Of a stretch of 38,848 nucleotides of DNA, positions 1,184 to 36,105 are shown piece by piece. The notes under the pieces were generated by a model. That model saw only the letters and a program-made list of their open reading frames with translations. It was not told where the DNA came from and did not search any database. Within the stretch, counting starts at the first letter, position 1; each line of letters starts with the position of its first letter. This DNA comes from Pachysolen tannophilus NRRL Y-2460. Lineage: Eukaryota. The DNA is taken from the NCBI GenBank assembly GCA_001661245.1, contig KV454017.1:611061-649908 (forward strand). Direction: 5' to 3'. The translations under genes were made by a program, and so were the position numbers.

Positions 1184-2785
1184 TCATCTACTAAACGCTA
1201 TATCATCAATTCTTAAAATAGACTTGACACACTCACTAGCCAACGTAATAGCACTGGTACTAACCAATACCGGTTGTAAAACATGTTCTTCAAGTGTATT
1301 AATTGTACCACCTCTACGGACACTTATACCGGCATTCTTTTCACCCAGGACATGTTTATTTCTTAATTCTGTAACAATATCAATAGGGTTTAATCCTGCA
1401 TTTTCTGCTAAAGTTGTTGGAATAATTTCTAATGCTTCTGCAAATTCTTTAAAACAAAATTGTTGAACTCCAGATAATTTGGATGATTCTTTCATTAATG
1501 TTTGTGAAACTTCAATTTCTGGAGCACCACCACCAGCAATAAGGGCTTTTTCTTTGACCAAACATCTAATGACACATAAAGCATCATGTAATGATCTTTC
1601 AGTTTCATCCAAGATTAATTCATTTGCTCCTCTACATACAACAGAGACAGTTGGAGATACCACGTTTTTAACACCAGTGATTTGAACAATTTTAGAACCA
1701 GCAGATTCGATTTCCTCAACAACATCAGCTGATCCAAGTCTTTGATCAGTAAAAGAATCAATGTCAGCAATAGGTTTACAACCTAAAGATTTTGATATAA
1801 ATTCAATTTCATCTCTTTCAATATCTTTAACAACTAAAATATTCAATTTACTAAGGAAATGTAATGCTAAATCATTAACAGCATCTCTTAATATAGATTT
1901 TTGAATTAATAATACATTACATTTTGCCTTTTTAATTTTTTTGCAAATATTTAACAAATAAGCTCTTTCTTCTTTTAAAATCTTATCCATTTGTCTATAA
2001 TCATTTACAACCACATTATTTTCCATATCTGGTTTTGGTGGTGATAATTGAAATTGTATCAATCCAATTTTGGCCTTTTCCATTCTAGTTGGACCACCTG
2101 CAGATTTAATAACAGTTTGAGTTAATACAACACCATCAACCAATTCAGTATCATCAATAGTTCCTCCAACTTTTTTAATCAATCTGATATCATTTATATC
2201 AACATTTGTAGCCTCTGGATTTGTTACTCTTAAAACAGATTCTACAGCAATTGGAGCCAATAAATTAGAAAATTGAGAAACAATTTTAGAACTTAAAGAA
2301 GTAGTAGCAGCTCTAATTAATTGTTCTTTATCATCCAATGAAATTTTGTGTGACATATCAAGTAAAATTTCAACAGATCTTCTTGCTGCAGTCTGGAAAC
2401 TTTCAGATATAATCGTTGGATGAATACCTTTATTCAACAACTTCTCAGCAGCACCTAATAAAGCACCAGTAATTACAACAACAGAAGTAGTACCATCTCC
2501 CGCTTCTGTATCTTGAGCAGCAGAAACATCAACCAACATCTTCGCTGCAGGATGTAAAACAGCCATATGCTTCAAAATAGTATGACCATCATTAGAAATA
2601 ATATATTCTCCATTACCAGTCTTAATCATCTTATCCATACCTTTTGGTCCCAATGAAGTTCTAATCGCATCACTAACAGCTCTTGCTGCTAAAATATTTG
2701 ATTTACGAACCTCTTGAGGCTTTTCCTTATTTTTAAAAGTAGCATTAGAAGGTCCAACTGTAGAACTCACCGGAGCAGCTGCCAT
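1184..2785 (-). CDS. CCT4: Chaperonin CCT/TRiC subunit delta
   Basis: [20 protein letters not shown], delta-specific [18 protein letters not shown] and [12 protein letters not shown]. Confidence 0.97.
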
Positions 2786-4432: not shown

Positions 4433-5988
4433 TTACAAATTTGTGAAGGATATGTCATTGGAAAGTCCATGGAGAGGAAAAGGTTGTTCTTGACCAATTA
4501 ATGGTCCAAAACAGTAATATAATTTTGGTCTATAACTTGGATCCTGAATCATAACATTTGAATTTTTAAATTTTTCAATCAACCCTTTTTTACCTTGAAT
4601 ATTGGCATAAGAAGCATCGCATATCTTTTCGCTTTTGAATTTATTCCATTTTTTACCAACTCTTGCTTTTACAAAAGTTATAATAGCTTCCACAGAAATG
4701 AAATTTATAAAGCAATATCCAACACTAAATTTATATAAATAATACTGTTAGTTTAAGTAATATTATTATTGAAAATTTTTATCATATTCATGGTGATACT
4801 AACTTGCAATGATTGGCGAAATCCATTCTTAAATCTAAAATTCTAATCAGTACATGTTCTCTTTATTTCAGTTATTATTATTTTTACCTATTACTTACAC
4901 AAAAAATCATAGGTACCATAATTGGTAAGGTCAATGTATTCTTTCAACATTTGTTGATCAACTTTGTTCGGAATATTTCTGATCATCAAAGTAGTTCTTG
5001 TTTCAAGACCTCTTGCAATTCGACTAATATCAACTACATTGTAATATGGGACATTTGAAATTGTGGTTAAAGGTTCTTTAGCAGTTTCCAGTACCAAATT
5101 GCTGATTCCAATATTTTCATTATTAATTACATTATAAGGTCTTGTTGGTATATGTGACAGATATAATTCTTTATTATAATCTTTTTTCAATATGCCTTTC
5201 CATGTAGATAATTTTTTCAATTCTGGGTTTTCATAAGTGAAATTTTTTGATGATAATGATAGATTTGGCATTTTTAAAGATAATATATCTTCTAATTTTG
5301 CGGAAATATATATCGTATAATTATTTTCTAATTTTATAAATCCATCAATAGAATTTTTCATACATTTTTGAAGTGATCTTAAATCATAAAATTGAAGCAT
5401 AAAAATTTCATTGGAATCTGTAATATTTTCAAGAAATTCGATGTCTCCATATAAAATAGACAAATGATTTATTAATTCCAGCTTATTGAGATTAAAACTC
5501 TTCAAATAAATATTTTCAAACTTGAAAATTTCATGTTTAGAAACATTTGCTTCTTCAAGACTTAAAAATCGTACACTCCCATGTAAATCTTCAAAACATT
5601 TTCTTGAACTCCTGCTATCAAACCAGCCCACAATCGCACCAAACCTAACAACATCGCTATTAGTATATTCTTGAATACCAAACTCCATCATTGCAACTTC
5701 TCCAAATTTTGAACAAAATTCTACATGAAACCAATTTGGGTCAGTCGAAGGTGGGATCTTATTAAATACAAGCACTCTCGATAAAAAAAACTCGCTGCCG
5801 TTTTTCGGAACTTTATCAAAACCAATTGGTGATTCCAATTGTGCCAGTGACTTCAAAGCTACATTACAAGCGGGCTGCTGCTCTACAATCAAACCTGAAT
5901 CGAAATCGTTTCCTACAAATTGTAACTCATTCGCTGGCGGCTGAAGAAATGCGGTACTAAATATACTGTCCATATACTTTCCTCTCAT
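4433..5988 (-). CDS. mei2: Mei2-like meiotic RNA-binding protein, 3 RRMs; exons 5988-4899, 4834-4804, 4724-4433; 470 aa
   Basis: The spliced product reads RTTLMIRNIPNKVDQQMLKEYIDLTNYGTYDFLYLRMDFANHCNVGYCFINFISVEAIITFVKARVGKKWNKFKSEKICDASYANIQGKKGLIEKFKNSNVMIQDPSYRPKLY, the Mei2-family C-terminal RRM3. Degenerate RRM1 (SRVLVFNKIP..SKFGEV..VGWFDSR) and RRM2 (YGDI..LQFYDLR) lie upstream. Exon lengths 1090+31+292 = 1413 nt, in frame. Confidence 0.9.
4725..4803 (-). other. Intron 2 of the Mei2-like gene (79 nt)
   Basis: GTTAGT donor at 4803, AACTAAC branch (4753-4747), TTTAG acceptor; removal restores HC-N-VGYCFINF. Confidence 0.88.
4835..4898 (-). other. Intron 1 of the Mei2-like gene (64 nt)
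   Basis: GTAAGT donor at 4898, TACTGAT branch (4852-4846), TTTTAG acceptor; removal restores YDFL-Y-LRMDF. Confidence 0.88.
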
Positions 5989-6343: not shown

Positions 6344-9035
6344 ATGAGTGTTGAAAGCAGAGGAACTGGTACTAGTGGATTTGATGGAGTTAGTGGCGCT
6401 AGAGTTAGCGCTAGTGATAATGACTTTGAAGAGCCACAATTGGTTGATAATTACAAAAAAATTTTAGCAATTGATTTCAGATTTCATAAACTTGGGGGTT
6501 GTTTTTATAGTCACGAAGATCAAAAACTATTAGTTATAGAAGATACGACAACCAATAGTCCTGATATTTATCTCGAGTCGGTATTGTTTCAGCTAAGTCC
6601 AACAGTTGTTGCTGTTAGTAGCTCAATTGATGATAGAATTGCTGAAGTTTTGAATAAGAATCGTAAGTTTGACATTACTGTTTCAAAACTTTGCAAATTA
6701 TTTTACTGACACAATATATATATATATATATACATGTATATTCTTTGTGAATGTATTAGAAAAGAAATTCAACTATAATATAAATATTAGACCTTCTAGG
6801 GAATTTAGTTCAAAAAATGGTTCCAACTATGTCTTGCCTTTTGCAAATTCAAGTGTTCTGGTTTGTATTACCCTCGCAAGATTTTGTGACCCCCTAAATT
6901 GAAAAAAAAAAATATTAACATATTTCAATTGTAGATGGTCTCTTGTTCTGCGTTGTTGGGGCTTCTTGAAACATCTGTCCTTTTGAAGGATCCAAGTACT
7001 GATGTTGAAACCATTTTATCTTCCTTTGAGCCGTTCATTCTGTAAGTATTAGAAATATCTACTTCCCAATTACGAAAAATGTACATATATCAACTGACAA
7101 TAATACCACACCACATACAAAAGCAATGATTATTTATTTATAGATGAAGATTCCCTTTATGCTCTCAAAATTTTTCCCTGTTCAAAAAATGATTTTAACG
7201 CGGATGGCGGTAAATCATCTGTTTATGACATTTTGAATTTGACTGGATCAGAATCAGGTTCCCTGTTATTGAAAATTTGGTTGTTAAGACCTTTGTCTGA
7301 TTTGGAAAAGATTAACAAAAGACTTGACACAATATCGATTTTAACTAAACAAGAATACTCTGATGAAGTGGAGGATTTGATGAATTTGGTTAAAAGTTTG
7401 AACTCTCTGACTAGATTGGTATTACTGTTGAAATCAGGGAAATCTAACTATAATACATGGTTAAAGTTATATAATTTTATATTAAATTCATATCAGATAT
7501 TTCAAAAAGTTTCATCACTAATAATGAAAGGAGAAAATTGTGAAATTTTTGAAAAAATTTCGACGAGAATTGATCCATCGAAACTTTCTGAATTACTAAA
7601 CACTTTACAAGTAACCGTCGATTTTGATGACTCTAAGTTAGAGAGTAGAGTAACAGTTTTGGACGGTTTCGATTCTCAATTAGACGAATATCGTAAAACA
7701 TACAATGAAATGGAACTGATTTTGCAAATGGTAGCTTCAGAACTTAGTAAAGACATGGCTCCAGATCTAGCTAAGCTATTGAACGTCGTTTATATACCTC
7801 AGCTAGGTTATTTAGTGTCTATCGAAAATCAAAACTCTAAAATTGAAAATATTGCAGTGAAGCTAGGTTGGAATGAGGTTTTCAGAACTTCAACCACTAT
7901 TTATTATAAAAACTATGATATGGAAGAAATGGACGGATACTACGGTGACATTTATACTTTAATGTGTGACTGCGAGATTGAAATATTATATAATGTTCAG
8001 AAGAAAATACTAAAGCATGAAAAGACACTAACTGAGATTACTGCTTTACTTTCTGAGTTAGATTGTTTTTTAGCCTTATCAAAAGCCGCATTAATGCATA
8101 AATATGTAAAACCAGAAATGACAGATGACATTTCACTAGACATAGAAGAGTCGAGGCATCCTGTTTATGAAACCTTGGTTCCTTCATTTGTTCCAAATGA
8201 TGCCAAATTAAATACAGGTGATGATGATTGCAATGATTTTGAACGCATTATGTTGCTTACAGGAGCAAATTTTAGTGGAAAGTCAATTTATCTAACACAG
8301 GTAGCTTTGATTGTATATTTATCACATGTAGGCTGCTTTGTTCCTGCGAAAAAGGCAAAGATTGGAATCTGTGACAAAATATTGACTAGAATAATGTCCC
8401 GAGAATCAGTTTCAAGACAACAGAGCACCTTCATGGCTGATGCTCAGCAAATGTCAAAATGTTTAAAATTAATGAGTAAAAAGTCATTGCTTATTATCGA
8501 TGAGTTTGGAAAAGGTACAGATATTAATGACGGACCTGCATTATTTGGATCTGTCTTGAAATATCTTTCTTCTTTAAATAATAATTGTCCAAGAAGCATT
8601 GCCGCTACACATTTCCATGAATTACTCTCGAATACTTCATTGAAAAAAATTTTAAACTTAAATCATGTTCATTATTACAATATGGAAATTTTAATAACAA
8701 AAGATTACGATACCTCATTGGGAAAGCAGTCAGATCAAATAACCTATCTATACCAGTTGAAAGAAGGTTTAGCGGGAGGTAGTTTTGGAATATTTTGTGC
8801 CAAAAATTCAGGTATTGACAACAATATTATAGAAAGAGCAGAGTTTTTTGTTTCTTTGTTTGAAAAAGGCGATGAAATTGACTTCGATTGTTACATTAAA
8901 ATAGATTCGGATTATCAGAAGAGGTTAAAAAAAGCAGAAGACATAACTAGGAAATTTATCATTTGGGATTTGGATGAAGATGCTCAAGATATAGAGGTAA
9001 ATTTAGGGGAAAAATTAGAAGAAATTTTAGATTAA
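6344..9035 (+). CDS. MSH5: Meiotic MutS-gamma subunit Msh5; exons 6344-6662, 6760-6860, 6935-7041, 7124-9035; about 812 aa
   Basis: TGANFSGKSIYLTQVALIVYLSHVGCFVPA, ESVSRQQSTFMAD, IDEFGKGT, VYIPQLGYL. The upstream exons supply IRPSREFS and FIDEDSLYALKIFP. Exons sum to 2439 nt, in frame. Confidence 0.92.
6663..6759 (+). other. MSH5 intron 1 (97 nt)
   Basis: GTAAGT donor, TACTGAC branch 6704-6710, TAG acceptor; phase 1, frame-restoring. Confidence 0.8.
6861..6934 (+). other. MSH5 intron 2 (74 nt, non-consensus GTTTGT donor)
   Basis: GTTTGT donor, TATTAAC branch 6913-6919, TAG acceptor; phase 0. The donor position is less certain than for the other introns. Confidence 0.65.
7042..7123 (+). other. 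MSH5 intron 3 (82 nt, AAG acceptor)
   Basis: GTAAGT donor, AACTGAC branch 7092-7098, AAG acceptor 7121-7123. The next TAG (7141-7143) gives an immediate stop. Confidence 0.75.
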
Positions 9036-14389: not shown

Positions 14390-16726
14390 TTAGAAAGTGG
14401 CAGTAAAAGATTCAGCAGCTGATTTCAATTTAGCCAATAATTCATCAGTAAGTACACCACGTTCTCTAACGGCTTCCAAAACTTCAGGTTGGTTAGATTT
14501 TAAGTATGCTAAGAAAGAACTTTCAAATTCGGCAATTCTTGCTAATGGAACGTTATCCAAGAAACCGTTAACACCTGCGTAAATGATTGGAACTTGTTCT
14601 TCAGCAGCTAAAGGAGAATATTGACTTTGTTTTAACAATTGGGTCAATCTTTCACCTCTAGCTAAAGTTTGCTTTGTTGAAGCATCCAAATCTGAACCGA
14701 ATTGAGCAAAAGCAGCAACTTCTCTATATTGAGCCAAGAAAAGTTTTAAAGAACCAGAAACTTGTTTCATGGCCTTAACTTGAGCAGCAGAACCAACACG
14801 AGAAACTGATAAACCAACGTTAATAGCTGGTCTAATACCTTTGTAGAATAATTCAGATTCCAAGAAAATTTGACCATCAGTGATGGAAATAACATTGGTT
14901 GGAATATAAGCAGAAACATCACCACCTTGAGTTTCAATAATTGGTAAAGCAGTTAAAGAACCACCACCTAATTTATCATTCATCTTAGCAGCTCTTTCTA
15001 ACAAACGTGAATGCAAGTAAAAGACATCACCTGGGTAAGCTTCACGACCTGGTGGACGTCTCAATAACAATGACAATTGACGGTATGCAACAGCTTGTTT
15101 GGATAAATCGTCATAGACAATTAAAGCGTGTCTTCCATTGTCTCTGAACCATTCACCAATAGCACAAGCAGTGAATGGAGCAATATATTGTAATGGAGCA
15201 GCTTCTGAAGCAGTAGCAGCAACAATGATGGAGTATTTAAGAGCATCGTGTTGTTCTAAAGTTTGAACTAATTGAGCAACAGTGGAACGTTTTTGACCAA
15301 CAGCAACGTAAACACAGTATAACTTCTTCTTTTCATCTGAACCATTGTTCCATCTCTTTTGGTTTAAGATGGTATCTAAAGCAACAGCAGTCTTACCGGT
15401 TTGACGATCACCAATAATCAATTCTCTTTGACCTCTACCAACTGGGACCAAAGCATCAACTGATTTCAAACCAGTTTGCATTGGTTCAGAGACAGATTGT
15501 CTTGGTAAAATACCTGGAGCCTTAACTTGAGCTCTTGTATGACCTGAAGCCTTAATTGGACCTTTACCATCAATTGGGTTACCTAAAGCATCAACAACTC
15601 TTCCTAATAAAGCTGGACCAACTGGAACATCAACAATCTTACCAGTACGCTTAACAATTTCACCTTCTTTGACTAATCTATCTGAACCAAACAAGACAAT
15701 ACCAACTTGACCTGGTTCCAAGTTTAAAGCCATACCTTTAACACCTGAAGCAAATTCAACCAATTCTTCAGCTTGACAGTTGTTTAAACCGAAAACACGA
15801 GCAATACCATCACTAGAGAGATAAAAAAAATTCAATTGTTAGTAATTTGCAAGAGAAAAACAGACAACATACAGTAATAATGATTTAATCAGTCAATCAG
15901 TCAATCGCTCTATCAATCAGTACATTATCTCAACTTCTAGTACAATACTATTTTGTACTGAAATCTCCAATTAATCTGGTTATGAGAAATGAACACTTTT
16001 AATTGGACACCCGCGAATTTTTTCATTTTTTTTTTTTCATTTTTTCAAAATTTTTTTTTTTGATATTTTTTTCCACGAACAAATCACTGCCTGAGTTGAA
16101 TGAAAGTGTGCCAGCTAATAATATTGTGTACTAAACGACAAGCTCATTTCCAGATAGGAAACAACCTTACCGTTTGTAAAAGCACAATTGACATTCATTG
16201 GCTGATTGATTGAATCTCAATTGATGATTGAGAAGAAGCATATAAAAAAAAAGAAAAAAGATACATACCCGACGGATAAAACTCTACCTGTTTCGTTTAA
16301 ATTAGCTTCATCAGAGACACCTCTAATTTTTTCTTCCAAGATAGATGAAACTTCAGTTGGCGCTGGTTTAGCAGAAGCGTATGATCTAACTGAAGCAGCC
16401 ATTAATGGACGAGCCTATTTAAAATAATTATAATTATAATTGTAAATTGTTAGTAAATCTTCAAATTATATGAATAATCAACAAAAATATAAGCGCCCAT
16501 GACAATTAACTGTTTAATCAATTGATTGATCAATCAATTGATTAAACATTCAATTGTCATGATGAATTGGCTCATAATAAAATAATATAAAATATTTTAA
16601 TTGATTAATTAAAATCAAATTTAAAAAATTTAAATTAAAACTTACAACTCTTGGAATTAAACGAGCAACATTAACAGCAATAGCTGAACGAGCAGTAGCT
16701 CTAGCAAATGAACGTGCTGAAAGCAT
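14390..16726 (-). CDS. ATP1: Mitochondrial F1 ATP synthase alpha subunit; exons 16726-16646, 16414-16269, 15812-14390; 549 aa
   Basis: [34 protein letters not shown]. Presequence [14 protein letters not shown]; splicing restores [15 protein letters not shown]. Exons sum to 1650 nt. Confidence 0.97.
15813..16268 (-). other. ATP1 intron 2 (456 nt)
   Basis: GTATGT donor at 16268, TACTAAC 15844-15838, CTAG acceptor. Confidence 0.95.
16415..16645 (-). other. ATP1 intron 1 (231 nt)
   Basis: GTAAGT donor at 16645, TACTAAC 16455-16449, TAG acceptor. Confidence 0.93.
16511..16548. repeat. Perfect 38-bp palindrome in ATP1 intron 1
   Basis: TGTTTAATCAATTGATTGA|TCAATCAATTGATTAAACA is its own reverse complement; extended by CATGACAATT (16498-16507) and AATTGTCATG (16552-16561). 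Confidence 0.95.
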
Positions 16727-16974
16727 CTTTATTCTATATTATACTATCACTAAAATTAATACACGAATATTATATATTCAATTTTTCTTTCTTGAATATA
16801 AAATAAAAGGTATAGTATATAATTGATGATGATAATTTTTTTTTTCTATTTAAAATAAATAGTATTAAGAGAAATAAATTCCTTAACCAAAAAAAAAAAA
16901 AAAATTAACAAAGATTTCCTTGACCAAAATTTTTCAGAAATTATCATTGAGGAAAAAAGTTGAATTTTGGTTGG

Positions 16975-18241: not shown

Positions 18242-21200
18242 ATGAAATTATTGACAAAAGTATGTTTTGCCAACGGCGCTTATTTTAAAAAAACAAATTA
18301 TTTAAACAATTGATTACTAACATATCTTAAACAGTTTGAATCCAAATCTTCAAAGGCAAAGGGTGTTGCTTTTCATCCGAAAAGGTTAGTATTTTTTAAT
18401 TTTTTTTTTTTTTATATGATCTAGTCACATATATAAACGTTTATCGTTTATATAATTAAGTTGGTTAATTTACGTTTTACTAACAAAAAAAAAAATTTTT
18501 TTTTTCTATTAAGGCCATGGATATTGGTTACTTTGTACTCTTCAACCATTCAGTTATGGGATTACAGGATGGGGACATTGATTGATCGTTTTGAAGAACA
18601 TGATGGACCTGTTAGAGGTATTGATTTCCATCCAACTCAACCAATTTTTGTTTCTGGTGGTGATGATTATACCATTAAAGTTTGGTCGTTACAAACAAGA
18701 AAATGTATGTTCACATTAACTGGACATTTGGATTATATTAGAACTGTTTTCTTTCATCATGATTTACCTTGGATTATATCTTGTTCTGATGATCAAACAA
18801 TAAGAATTTGGAATTGGCAAAATCGTCAAGAAATTGCATGTCTTACTGGTCATAATCATTACGTGTTTTGTGCAAAATTCCATCCAACTGAAGACTTGAT
18901 AGTTTCAGCTTCATTGGATCAAACAGTAAGAGTTTGGGATATCTCAGGTTTGAGAAAGAAACATTCTGCTCCACAAGGTAGAATTAGATCTTTTGAAGAT
19001 CAACTTTCAAGATCAAATATTCCACAACAAGATATTTTTGGTAATACTGATGCTGTTGTAAAATATGTTTTAGAAGGCCATGATAAGGGAGTCAATTGGG
19101 CAAGTTTCCATCCAAGATTACCTTTGATTGTATCAAGTGGTGATGACCGTTTGATCAAATTATGGAGAATGAGTGATACTAAAGCTTGGGAAGTGGATAC
19201 ATGTAGAGGTCACACAAGTAATGTTCTTGCAGTAGAATTTCATCCACATGAAGATTTAATTATCTCGGTTGGTGAAGATAAAACAATTAGAACTTGGGAT
19301 TTGAATAAGCGTACCCTGGTTAAACAATTCAAGCGTGAAAATGATCGTTTTTGGACAATAGCTGCTCACCCAACTATGAATTTGTTTGCTGCATGTCATG
19401 ATTCAGGTGTTATGGTTTTCAAATTAGACAGAGAAAGACCAGCACATGCTGTTTTCCAAAATAAATTAATCTTTGTTAATAATGAAAAACAAGTTCAAAT
19501 GTTTGATTATGATACTGAAAGAGAAACTTTACCAATGTTATCTTTGAAAAAAATTGGAAAACCTTGGACAAGTATTAGAACCTTGTCTTATAATCCAGCA
19601 GAACGTTCCATTTTGGTTTCTGTTGGTGATAATAATGATAATTCAATTTATTGTTTAACTCCATTGCCAAAAGATGTAACAGGTGCTATTGAACCAAGTG
19701 ACTTGCGTCAAGGAGAAGCTAATTTTGCTTGTTTTATTGCTCGTAATAGATTTGTCAGCTACTCTAAGGCAACACAAATGTTAGAAGTTAGAGATTTGAA
19801 CAATTCAACAACAAAATCAATAAAATTAGATTCTTCTGTTAAAGACGTTGTATATGCTAGTCCTGGTACTGTTTTATTGTTAAAAACTTCAAGTGTTGTT
19901 CATTACGATGTTCAACAAAAAAAAGAATTATCAGAAATTCAGGTTAATAACGTTAAATACGTTTCCTGGTCCAGTGATGGTCAACATGTTGCTTTATTAT
20001 CAAAACATACCGTTACCATTGCTTCCAAGAAATTAGAATTGATTACCTCATTGCATGAGACAATTAGAATTAAAAGTGCTGCATGGGATGACACTGGTGT
20101 ATTAATTTATTCAACTTTGAATCACATCAAGTACACATTGTTAAATGGAGATAACGGTATCATAAAGACTTTAGAAAATACTTTATATATCACAAAAGTC
20201 CAAGGTAAGAGTTGTTACTGTTTAAACCGTAATGGTGAAGTTGAAATCATTAGAATAGATCCGACTGAATATCGTTTCAAAAAAGCTCTTGTTAACAAAA
20301 ATTTCACTGAAGTCTTACGTATTATCAAGAACTCCAACTTGGTTGGTCAAAATATTATTGGCTACTTGGAAAAGAAAGGTTATCCTGAAATTGCATTACA
20401 ATTTGTTGAGGATCCAGAAACTAGATTTGAATTGGCCTTAGAGTGCCATAATTTGGAAGTTGCTTTAGATGAAGCCAGAAAATTGGCTACTCCAACAACA
20501 TGGGGAAAATTAGGAAAAGAAGCTTTGACTCAAGGTAATGTCGAAATTGTAGAATTGGTTTACCAACAACAGAGATTATTTGATAAATTGTCCTTTTTAT
20601 ACCTTATTACTGGTAATATTGAAAAATTGACTAAAATGCAAGAAATTGCAGAACATCGTGGTGATTTATCTTCGGTTGTACAAAACTCTATTTATTTAAA
20701 TGATATTGAAAAAAGAATTGAAGTTTTCGTTCAAGCTGGAATGTTCCCATTTGCTTATATGACAGCGAAGACAAATGGTTTAGATGAATTAGCAGAAAAA
20801 ATTTTAGTTAATTCTAGTGTTTCAGCTAGTGATATAAAATTACCAGAGCTAGGAGAAAAGCCAAAATTACCTCAACCAGTATTGACAGCAGGTAATTGGC
20901 CATTAAAGAAGTCTTCATTATCATTCTTTGAACAAGCATTAATTGGCCAAGTTGAGAACTTGACATTAGAAGAACCATCCACGACTGAAGGTAAGGAGTT
21001 TGCTGATTCTGCAGCAGATGCATTTGGCTCTGAAACTTACTTTGAAGATGATGAAGCTTTGGAAGAGGATAACGGTTGGGATCTTGATGATGATGATCTT
21101 GATGTTGGTGATGCTGACAAGGATGAAGCCATAGATATAGCTGAAGAAGCTGGAGTTAATATTGGATCAAGTGAAATTGGGCATTGGATAAGAAATTCAC

Positions 21201-22078
21201 GTAGTGCTGCTGGTTTTGTTGCTGCTGGTTCATTTGAAACTGCAGCGCAATTATTGAACAAACAATTGGGTATTGTAAATTTCGAACCATTACGTTCACG
21301 TTTCTTAGAAGTCTACCAAGCATCCAAGTTGTATGTTCCAGCTACAGAAGGATTAGGACCAATCAAAGCATACATTCGTTCGGATGTAGAGGAAGAATCT
21401 GAAAAGAAATTCTTTCCTTTCATTCCAGGATATGACGGATTGGAAGCTAAATTGCATGAAGGTTTCAAACAGTTTCGTGCAAATAAATTAGAGGAGGCAA
21501 TAGAAAATTTCCGTGAAATTATATATACTGTCGCAATCATAGCTGTTCCATCGAAGGATGAAGAAGAAAAATGCAGAGAGATTTTGAATGTATGTCGTGA
21601 ATATATTCTTGGTCTTTCAATCGAATTGGCTCGTCGTGCTTTACCACAAGATGATATTAAGCGTAATTTAGAATTAGCTGCATATTTCACAAGGGCTAAA
21701 TTACAACCTGCTCACAGGGTGAATGCCTTACAAGTCGCCATGTCTCAATGTTTCAAACACAAAAACTTTAGATCAGCTTCATTTTTCGCTGCTGAATTTT
21801 TGAAAATAGTTTCATCGGGACCAAGACTGGAACAGGCAAATAAGATTAAGACAAGAGCTGATGCAGTTTCAACGGATGCAATTGAATTAGATTTTGATCC
21901 ATTTGCTGATTTTGACATTTGTGCATCAACTTACACCCCAATCTATAAAGGATCAGCTTTCGTAACAGAAGCTTTGTTAGGAACTAAATACCAACCAAGT
22001 GAAAAAGGTAAATTATGTGAAATTACAAAAATCACCAGCATCGGAGCTCCTGCTTCAGGTTTACGTATTATTCAATAG
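18242..22078 (+). CDS. COP1: Coatomer alpha subunit; exons 18242-18259, 18335-18384, 18514-22078; 1210 aa
   Basis: Splicing gives [28 protein letters not shown]; WD40 repeats; C-terminal IGAPASGLRI. Confidence 0.97.
18260..18334 (+). other. COP1 intron 1 (75 nt)
   Basis: GTATGT donor, TACTAAC 18315-18321, CAG acceptor. Confidence 0.95.
18385..18513 (+). other. COP1 intron 2 (129 nt, AAG acceptor)
   Basis: GTTAGT donor, TACTAAC 18478-18484, AAG acceptor; restores HPK-R-PW. Confidence 0.92.
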
Positions 22079-33810: not shown

Positions 33811-36105
33811 ATGAAGACTATAAAGAAAATTAAAAGGTATTTTATGTATGGGAATGAGGATGAAGATTATGGGCGATACCACTCTTCTCATCAAAAATCG
33901 TCATTAATGGCGATCTGGATTGGTTTGTTTTGTGCGTTAGGTGGGTTTTTATACGGTTATGACACTGGTGTTATTAATGGATTATTAGCAATGAAGGTGG
34001 TGAAGAAGAGGTTTGCAGCAAATGGAGAATCATTTACTGCTTTAGAAACAGCGGAGATCACTGCGATCTTATCACTGGGGACATTTTTCGGTGCACTTTT
34101 TGCATCTGTATTATCGGATAGAGTTGGGAGGAGACTTACAATTATATTGACAACATCGTTACTGTTCCCATTAGGAACAGCATTACAAGTAAGTTCATCT
34201 TCAATCCCTTTATTATGTACAGGAAGGTTTGTTAGTGGATTCGCAGTGGGAATAATATCAGCAGTGGTTCCTCTATATCAATCAGAAGCATCTCCAAAAT
34301 GGATTAGAGGTGCTGTTGTTTCCACTTATCAATTTGCAATTACTTGGGGGCTTCTTGTTTCTTCGGCAGTTTGTCAAGGAACTCATGCTATAGGTGATTC
34401 TAGGTCTTATAGAGTACCCATTGGTCTTCAATTAATATGGACATATATTTTGGCAATAGGAATGTATTTTTTACCAGAATCACCAAGATTTTATGTTAAA
34501 AAAGATCGATTAGAAGATGCAATAGAAGCATTATCAAGATTAAGAAAATTACCTCCATCAGATGAATTTTTAATTGAAGAATTAATCGATATTAAAGCAC
34601 AACATGATTATGAGTTGAGTTTTGGAAAAGCAACTTTATTAGATTGTTTTAGAAGTTCTCCAAGTAGGCATAAACAATTTTTACGTATGATGACAGGAAT
34701 TGGATTACAAGCTTTACAACAATCTTCCGGAATAAATTTTATATTTTATTATGGTGTTAATTTTTTTGAAAAAGCAGGTGTTTCTCAATCATACATTATA
34801 TCATTGGTAACATATCTGGTTAATGTCATAGCAACAATTCCAGGTATAGTATTAGTTGAGGTCATTGGTAGAAGAAAACTATTAGTTGGTGCAGCAGGTG
34901 TAATGACAGTGGCAAATCTAACAATAGCTATAGTTGGTGTTACTACAGATTCTTTAGTTGCAGATAATGTAATGATTGTATTATTGTGTATTTTCATTGC
35001 AACATTTGCTTCTTCATGGGGTCCTGTTGTATGGGTCATTTGTAGTGAGATTTATCCCTTGGATATTAGAGGTAAAGCTGTTTCAATCACTGCAGCATCC
35101 AATTGGATAGTTAATTTTGCATTTGCATTTATAACACCCTATTTAATTGATACAGGAAAACATACTGCTTCATTAGGAACAAAAATTTTTTTCATTTGGG
35201 GAGGATGTAATTTTATTGGACTGATGTTTGTTTATTTCTGTGTATATGAAACAAAAGGTTTAATGTTGGAAGAAGTTGATGAAATGTACAATGCATGCAA
35301 CTCTCTGTTGAGTTCGGGTCTGTACAAGTCCAAACTTCATCGCAACTATAGTGACAATAATGATAATGATAATGATAACAATATAAACAATGGAATTGAA
35401 TCAGATTCAACAATAACTACAACAAATAATGGTGAATCAACAAAGGAAGAAAAAACAGAGACAAATACAGTACCAACTAGTCTAACAGTGACAAGTACAA
35501 GTACAAGTGGAAGCAATGCTTTACCTTTATTTTCATCTCAAGATCCTAATTTCCACAATATTGTACCAGGATTAGATATGGTTACTCCAGGAAAGTTTTT
35601 ACCAAATTTGACGACTTCAAAACAACCAAACATTTTACAACAAGCTAGGGTAGAGTCTAATCAGCTTTTCCATGTCAACTTAAGTAGCAGGCCACCTTCA
35701 TCTGTGGAATCTGTATCATCGTTTGACGATGACAATGACAATGACGATGAAAATTGCGACTTGAACAACGTCTGTAGCGACGATGACGAAGACGAATACG
35801 ACGAAGACGAAGACAACGATAATGACAACGACAACGATGGGGGATTATTAGGTGGAGAAAGGAATATTTTTGGTGGTAGTGGCGGCGGATATATCAACGA
35901 AGTAGACTTATCAAATTTTATAAACAGCTTGAAAAGAGAACGATTACAACAGCAGAGCATGCAAGAACAACAACAACAACAGGAACAACAGGAACAACAA
36001 TTAGGACTGCTGGATGGTACTATCGTTGAGAACAGTCACACAGATCACAGTAATACGTGTGATGGTTCCGAAGTCAAGAACCACAAGGGTAAGAACGAAA
36101 CATGA
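33811..36105 (+). CDS. SNF3: Snf3/Rgt2-type hexose transporter-like glucose sensor with a long C-terminal tail
   Basis: Sugar-porter motifs (GFLYGYDTG, SEASPKWIRG, PESPRF, GINFIFYYG, VYETKGLMLEEVDEMY) plus a tail of about 270 aa with a degenerate sensor box (NLSSRPPSS then an acidic run). Directly upstream of NUS1, as SNF3 is in S. cerevisiae. Confidence 0.85.
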   Translation: MKTIKKIKRYFMYGNEDEDYGRYHSSHQKSSLMAIWIGLFCALGGFLYGYDTGVINGLLAMKVVKKRFAANGESFTALETAEITAILSLGTFFGALFASVLSDRVGRRLTIILTTSLLFPLGTALQVSSSSIPLLCTGRFVSGFAVGIISAVVPLYQSEASPKWIRGAVVSTYQFAITWGLLVSSAVCQGTHAIGDSRSYRVPIGLQLIWTYILAIGMYFLPESPRFYVKKDRLEDAIEALSRLRKLPPSDEFLIEELIDIKAQHDYELSFGKATLLDCFRSSPSRHKQFLRMMTGIGLQALQQSSGINFIFYYGVNFFEKAGVSQSYIISLVTYLVNVIATIPGIVLVEVIGRRKLLVGAAGVMTVANLTIAIVGVTTDSLVADNVMIVLLCIFIATFASSWGPVVWVICSEIYPLDIRGKAVSITAASNWIVNFAFAFITPYLIDTGKHTASLGTKIFFIWGGCNFIGLMFVYFCVYETKGLMLEEVDEMYNACNSLLSSGLYKSKLHRNYSDNNDNDNDNNINNGIESDSTITTTNNGESTKEEKTETNTVPTSLTVTSTSTSGSNALPLFSSQDPNFHNIVPGLDMVTPGKFLPNLTTSKQPNILQQARVESNQLFHVNLSSRPPSSVESVSSFDDDNDNDDENCDLNNVCSDDDEDEYDEDEDNDNDNDNDGGLLGGERNIFGGSGGGYINEVDLSNFINSLKRERLQQQSMQEQQQQQEQQEQQLGLLDGTIVENSHTDHSNTCDGSEVKNHKGKNET

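Follow-up and report, generated by a model that had tools for sequence, protein, structure and literature searches.

Does the budding yeast Pachysolen tannophilus encode an intact Mei2-type RNA-binding protein, and if so, in what process would that protein act? The question is raised by a locus on the minus strand, positions 4433–5988, of a 38,848-nt stretch of the strain NRRL Y-2460 genome (GenBank assembly GCA_001661245.1, contig KV454017.1, positions 611,061–649,908; hereafter the window, meaning this whole stretch). In Schizosaccharomyces pombe, Mei2 is a post-transcriptional regulator in starvation-induced sexual development. The original prediction, made from the nucleotide sequence, held that two open reading frame (ORF) fragments and a 31-nt microexon are spliced here into an uninterrupted Mei2-type third RNA recognition motif (RRM3), preceded by two degenerate RRMs. 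The span that it gave was exact, its two ends being the stop codon and the first ATG of the minus-strand gene. We assign a probability of roughly 0.8 to the reading that the locus is a functional, vertically inherited fungal member of the Mei2 family in a Saccharomycotina yeast; membership of the family, together with the gene model itself, is close to certain. The gene is composed as follows.

4899..5988, minus strand: exon 1, 1090 nt, with the ATG at 5988-5986; 363 codons plus one base
4835..4898, minus strand: intron 1, 64 nt, GTAAGT...branch-like TACTGAT...TAG; phase 1, within a Tyr codon
4804..4834, minus strand: microexon, 31 nt, encoding LRMDFANHC and parts of the flanking Tyr and Asn codons
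4725..4803, minus strand: intron 2, 79 nt, GTTAGT...branch ACTAAC...TAG; phase 2, within an Asn codon
4433..4724, minus strand: exon 3, 292 nt including the TAA at 4435-4433; last two thirds of RRM3 and a short tail
4511..5040, minus strand: Mei2-type RRM3, residues 317-445, split by both introns; recognized by our own profile, by alignment and by its RNA contacts

When joined, the three exons comprise 1413 nt, or 470 codons and a stop (465 amino acids if translation begins at a second in-frame ATG, 5973-5971). Exon 1 encodes a disordered N terminus, an RRM1-like domain, an RRM2-like domain, a linker, and the first third of RRM3. Without splicing, the locus reads as a 365-codon ORF (5988-4891) that stops two codons past a YDFL motif, and a second ORF fragment (4747-4433) that starts inside the conserved RRM core. 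Candidate products were scored with a hidden Markov model (HMM) of RRM3 built from 73 relatives, with the window sequence excluded (132 positions). The three-exon product exhibited 218.9 bits in a single stretch covering positions 1–129 of 132, as compared with 67.1 bits upon skipping of the microexon (frame shift and a stop after 6 codons), 63.9 bits upon retention of intron 1 (stop after 2 codons), 89.2 bits upon retention of intron 2 (stop after 5 codons), and 63.9 bits for the unspliced reading; all four alternative models stop within 2–15 codons. The predicted union of both ORF fragments through the microexon is upheld by this comparison and, as judged from sequence, the three-exon splice model is supported far beyond chance. 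The Pfam profile RRM_2 (PF04059; cut-off 25 bits) independently matched both halves of the domain, at 41.5 bits on the end of exon 1 (profile positions 1–34, residues 331–364) and at 73.5 bits on exon 3 (profile positions 42–97). The profile gap between the two matches corresponds exactly to the segment encoded by the microexon.

Structural and sequence comparisons relate this domain to S. pombe Mei2. Searched against the PDB, exon 3 retrieved S. pombe Mei2 RRM3 chains (7EIO, 7EIU, 6YYL, and 7DUS; E 2.2e-32 for 7eio_A), and the end of exon 1 (residues 315–363) retrieved S. pombe Mei2 7dus_A with an E of 8.5e-15. In MAFFT alignments, the spliced RRM3 was identical to S. pombe Mei2 (P08965) at 82 of 116 positions (71%) with zero gaps, and no gap column arose across the 116 residues against any of 18 relatives (18/18). 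The nearest RRM3 sequences are Lipomycetaceae “RNA recognition motif 2-domain-containing proteins”, five rows of which (from Lipomyces japonicus, L. oligophaga, Dipodascopsis, and Myxozyma) are 76–78% identical; identity is 66% for Saccharomycopsis and 63% for Ogataea philodendri (P0202). In contrast to their RRM3, the N-terminal halves of the Lipomycetaceae relatives are only ∼29–34% identical to the window protein and, unlike the window gene, their annotated proteins run uninterrupted across the microexon region. According to the accessible part of PMC9486875, RNA is contacted in S. pombe Mei2 RRM3 by N582, Y629, R631, F644, S677, Y678, N680, I681, and K690, and the domain has specific N- and C-terminal extensions. 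Both extensions are present in the window protein, the RRM3 of which is collinear with residues 580–733 of S. pombe Mei2, and all nine contacts are identical (N317, Y364, R366, F379, S412, Y413, N415, I416, and K425, respectively). Two of them, Y364 and R366 (S. pombe Y629 and R631), are specified by the microexon together with the junction upstream of it.

Public protein records bear on whether the spliced message is made. A product of the gene did not turn up in a collection of 15 billion proteins, which lacks the exact 365-aa ORF, and a word-indexed protein search with exon 1 returned 11 proteins with no match near 100%, though the window CCT4 matched its own record at 100%. One possible explanation is that the three-exon mRNA is not expressed, the gene being in decay or giving rise only to the 365-aa exon 1 product without a working RRM3; the non-consensus branch-like motif of intron 1 (TACTGAT) and the GTTAGT 5′ site of intron 2 would be in keeping with such a scenario. 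However, exon 3 and the microexon are open and in phase, the whole domain retains its identity to S. pombe Mei2 with every contact kept, and many relatives show this exon structure too, as described below. The introns of the neighboring MutS-type gene also have splice signals of similar style (5′ GTAAGT or GTTTGT; branch-like ACTGAC or ATTAAC). An unused splice site is unlikely because the downstream sequence would not otherwise stay so preserved, and non-expression is accordingly regarded as very improbable. Likewise, a pseudogene reading was discarded because each exon is conserved and in phase.

Returning to a functional, spliced gene, the positions of its introns were sought among 155 relatives as points at which homology breaks. 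In 24 of these, homology was lost straight after a YDFL-type motif, with a Cys, which is the position of intron 1; such a Cys would result from reading a terminal T of the exon into the GT of an intron. Two of the 24 (P0005 and P0138) continue in frame to an LRIDFANKC segment, and their junction residues (D before LRIDF and K after the final C) would fit the same 31-nt microexon boundaries. The remaining relatives were uninterrupted (93/155), lacked the motif as searched (22/155), or fell among other cases (16/155), six of which break after a Cys at the intron 2 position, including an Aspergillus terreus model, whose cluster also has a 627-aa “meiosis protein MEI2”, and a Xylographa bjoerkii record. 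Two budding yeast relatives, Kuraishia capsulata KUCA_T00000993001 (P0199; 369 aa) and Blastobotrys adeninivorans ARAD1C41360p (P0143; 285 aa), lose homology at the window intron 1 position and end a few residues past YDFL, whereas the window gene could be modeled across the microexon so that the whole domain is covered; the lack of most of the RRM_2 domain in P0199 and P0143 is likely to reflect annotation truncation. With these models ending at the same intron, and the product not found in the protein collection, the description of the gene as hidden by its introns was a fair one. Recurrence of an intron position after YDFL is a small new point. The microexon structure systematically truncates the gene in ORF-based and some curated annotations, and protein-set surveys will therefore undercount Mei2 in budding yeasts; what is supplied here is a complete gene model for a Mei2-family regulator whose product the public protein collection did not show.

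N terminal to RRM3, two further domains were delineated from an AlphaFold2 model of the exon 1 product, in which strands (E) and helices (H) are given by residue and the predicted local distance difference test score (pLDDT) is quoted per 10-residue block.

5578..5778, minus strand: RRM1-like domain, residues 71-137; E71-78, H84-94, E98-109, E112-122, H125-137; block pLDDT 72-90
5299..5511, minus strand: RRM2-like domain, residues 160-230, N-terminal part; E160-163, H169-179, E183-188, E195-200
5299..5511, minus strand: RRM2-like domain, residues 160-230, remainder; H203-212, E217-219, E225-230; block pLDDT 73-85

Both domains are predicted as beta-alpha-beta-beta-alpha units, and the rest of the exon 1 model is disordered. 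Foldseek returned 122 matches in the PDB at E ≤ 0.001, the best being tandem RRMs (HuR RRM1-2, hnRNP A1 UP1, hnRNPA2B1, and PABP RRM1-2) with E from 8e-6 and 173–190 aligned columns. An alignment of 17 sequences exhibited two conserved blocks N terminal to RRM3, with G181 invariant and D202 nearly invariant, and the RRM1-like region aligned with the RRM1 region of relatives. A collinear 544-aa relative matched across residues 70–363 (E 5e-26), and Kuraishia capsulata P0199 matched residues 91–363 (E 5e-15), ending at the same point. Strong divergence of RRM1 and RRM2 alongside a conserved RRM3 is typical of the Mei2-like family, as stated in the available text of PMC12951761, citing Jeffares 2004. 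The modeled domains thus support the presence of a three-RRM Mei2 architecture in which RRM1 and RRM2 are strongly diverged; the two degenerate N-terminal RRMs of the original prediction are borne out by prediction alone (AlphaFold2 and Foldseek), with no Pfam RRM_1 counterpart.

That the lineage keeps Mei2, as had been proposed, agrees with the occurrence of the gene elsewhere in the subphylum, and for the same reason is not novel. An exhaustive search of cluster representatives gave 339 matches at E ≤ 0.001; relatives were drawn from the 150 listed, and 29 were checked by name. Besides Ogataea polymorpha, Mei2-like proteins are annotated in at least 13 further named Saccharomycotina species: Lipomyces oligophaga, L. 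arxii, L. tetrasporus, L. japonicus, Dipodascopsis uninucleata, Myxozyma melibiosi, Tortispora caseinolytica, Trichomonascus vanleenenianus, Blastobotrys adeninivorans, Saccharomycopsis crataegensis, Ogataea philodendri, Kuraishia capsulata, and Wickerhamiella sorbophila, the record of the last being titled “Meiosis protein mei2”. Several UniRef titles read [quoted passage not shown], and the species of six relatives with taxonomy looked up fall in five orders. A search with exon 3 for longer proteins gave one match among 25 candidates, too little to address distribution, and a protein-cluster survey returned RRM_2 clusters only, these being commonest in Streptophyta. S. cerevisiae YGL036W may carry a Mei2-type C-terminal RRM, although none of the papers listed names it together with Mei2. 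Literature searches on Mei2 and budding yeasts found, among the papers listed, nothing devoted to Mei2 or its distribution there. A budding yeast homolog is nonetheless named in the part of Hanson et al. 2017 (PMC5720833) available, as O. polymorpha OPOL_74879_Spom_MEI2, for which no S. cerevisiae homolog is entered in that part; this empty entry is the one observation here in line with the stated lack of Mei2 in S. cerevisiae. Mei2 presence in Saccharomycotina is therefore already on record and not new. Ogataea polymorpha belongs to Pichiales, the order that supplies most of the named species closest to the window in CCT4; the related O. philodendri P0202 lies on a long branch.

Descent was examined in a quick IQ-TREE run on 132 columns, for which 74 of 156 rows with a complete domain were kept, 82 truncated or motif-less rows were dropped, and one S. 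pombe variant was swapped for the reference Mei2. The tree splits into two sides of 37 rows each, with a Shimodaira–Hasegawa-like approximate likelihood ratio test (SH-aLRT) value of 99. Pseudogymnoascus-type (Pezizomycotina) sequences occupy one side; the other holds the window, all 10 named Saccharomycotina rows, the Mei2 proteins of S. pombe, Pneumocystis, and Neolecta, and two early-diverging fungi. The rows nearest to the window by tree path are Lipomycetaceae (0.68–0.71). This topology is consistent with vertical descent and is no proof of orthology.

As for function, the following mechanism is proposed. Two short spliceosomal introns flank the 31-nt microexon, and both must be removed to yield the 470-aa protein, in which two divergent N-terminal RRMs precede a disordered linker and the highly conserved Mei2-type RRM3. 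By analogy with S. pombe Mei2 RRM3, the domain would bind U-rich RNA (UUC-type motifs), and the protein may be a post-transcriptional regulator switched on in starvation-induced sexual development (mating, meiosis, and sporulation). Such a role is suggested because S. pombe Mei2 works in this manner and because RIM4, IME2, and MUM2 are induced along with MEI2 in O. polymorpha. Control by a Pat1-type kinase, a meiRNA-like decoy RNA, and a YTH protein like Mmi1 may or may not belong to this scheme. By analogy with these two systems, we consider a role of the protein in the sexual cycle slightly more probable than its absence. In the portion of PMC5720833 available, O. polymorpha MEI2 rises by a log2 of 3.29 (adjusted P 3.7e-68) upon RME1 overexpression, along with the three genes named above, and IME1 is given as having no ortholog in that species (Hanson et al. 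2017). In yeasts of this kind, a Mei2 protein with its RNA-binding domain fully conserved is accordingly a reasonable candidate for a regulator of meiotic entry.

Several observations weigh against this interpretation as a whole. The gene model is known here from DNA sequence alone. For exon 1, the AlphaFold2 model averages a pLDDT of only 56.8, with 176 of 363 residues below 50 and a predicted template modeling score (pTM) of 0.41, and Pfam gives no RRM_1 match at E ≤ 1 for either RRM1 or RRM2, these being too diverged for detection. Within its side of the tree the window sits in a polytomy, with 37 of 71 inner branches unresolved, and Mei2 orthology therefore rests on family membership rather than on a resolved clade. 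The gene contains four CTG codons (residues 48, 170, 277, and 300), all outside RRM3. Mei2-like proteins have non-meiotic roles in other lineages. Beyond the three RRMs that both have in common, the window protein differs from S. pombe Mei2 in its length (470 as compared to 750 aa), in an RRM3 split by two introns and a microexon, and in a linker that is not alignable around the Pat1 sites, where S438 and T527 lie opposite gaps or unrelated residues. These two sites are those given for S. pombe Mei2 in the accessible part of PMC12951761, which also describes cytosolic and P-body functions of the protein.

From such points arises an alternative in which the gene is a real Mei2-family member that does not control meiotic entry; its product would instead be a regulator of starvation in general or of translation and P-bodies, or would act at a different developmental step. 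Pat1 target sites that do not align and a linker much shorter than in S. pombe would fit this, as would the restriction of strong conservation to RRM3, which the available text of PMC12951761 describes as typical of the whole Mei2-like family, and the action of S. pombe Mei2 in cytosolic P-bodies and translation given in the same source. It is opposed by the retention of all nine residues that contact meiRNA in S. pombe and by the co-induction of O. polymorpha MEI2 with RIM4, IME2, and MUM2, the sole budding yeast expression datum found (PMC5720833, as far as its available text goes). We therefore hold this alternative to be doubtful, if a serious one. A bolder extension of the sexual-cycle role, that in budding yeasts lacking IME1 Mei2 acts as the entry switch of the sexual program with its output gated by splicing of the two 3′ introns, is improbable. 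Any splicing failure would leave the protein without a working RRM3; and regulated splicing (e.g., specific to meiosis or starvation), if selected, would explain persistence of the intron 1 position, and of the putative microexon boundaries in two relatives, in otherwise intron-poor genomes.

The surroundings of the gene are those of a yeast chromosome, in line with the predicted placement of the locus in a budding yeast. The CCT4 encoded in the window is 83–86% identical to that of Kuraishia, Ogataea, Ambrosiozyma, Candida boidinii, and Komagataella, chiefly Pichiales genera, and of Wickerhamomyces, and ∼80% identical to S. cerevisiae CCT4. The window is ∼30% G+C, and its other ORFs are ordinary yeast housekeeping genes. 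Across the window, Rfam at the gathering threshold gave no matches and ARAGORN found no tRNAs. The CTG codon is rare (38 of 7557 codons over 14 long ORFs), and the sole CTG of CCT4 (1187-2785, minus strand, codon 480) lies opposite Asn in 103 homologs and Leu in 4; as read from this alignment column, CCT4 would be uninformative on CUG reassignment, neither supporting nor excluding it.

Divergent from the Mei2-family gene, with ∼355 bp between the ATGs, lies a multi-exon MutS-family gene (6344-9035, plus strand) with MutS_IV and MutS_V domains and at least three readable GT-AG introns. Its best PDB matches are MSH3 (E 7.6e-48) and MSH2 (E 8.3e-46); such weak likeness to MSH2, MSH3, and MSH6 would be in keeping with a protein of the meiotic MSH4/MSH5 type, a putative subfamily assignment. 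The hexamer GGCGGC, which resembles the URS1/Ume6 core motif of S. cerevisiae, occurs six times in the window as compared to 0.51 expected from shuffles, 0 of 100 of which reach six (positions 5936-5941, plus strand; 11368; 11407; 11410; 17006; and 35881). The copy at 5936-5941, in the context TGGCGGCTG, falls in codons 15–18 of the Mei2 gene, ∼400 bp upstream of the MutS-type ATG.

Elsewhere in the window, the gene for the ATP synthase alpha subunit (14390-16738, minus strand) apparently has two upstream exons, the ORF fragments 16217-16414 and 16550-16738 encoding presequence-like and N-terminal sequence, and the COPI alpha gene (18569-22078) seems to require a 5′ exon; the genome looks more intron-rich than that of S. 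cerevisiae. Finally, a sugar-transporter family protein (33811-36105, plus strand; Sugar_tr at residues 40–493) has a C-terminal extension of ∼270 residues, presumably reminiscent of glucose-sensor-type transporters.

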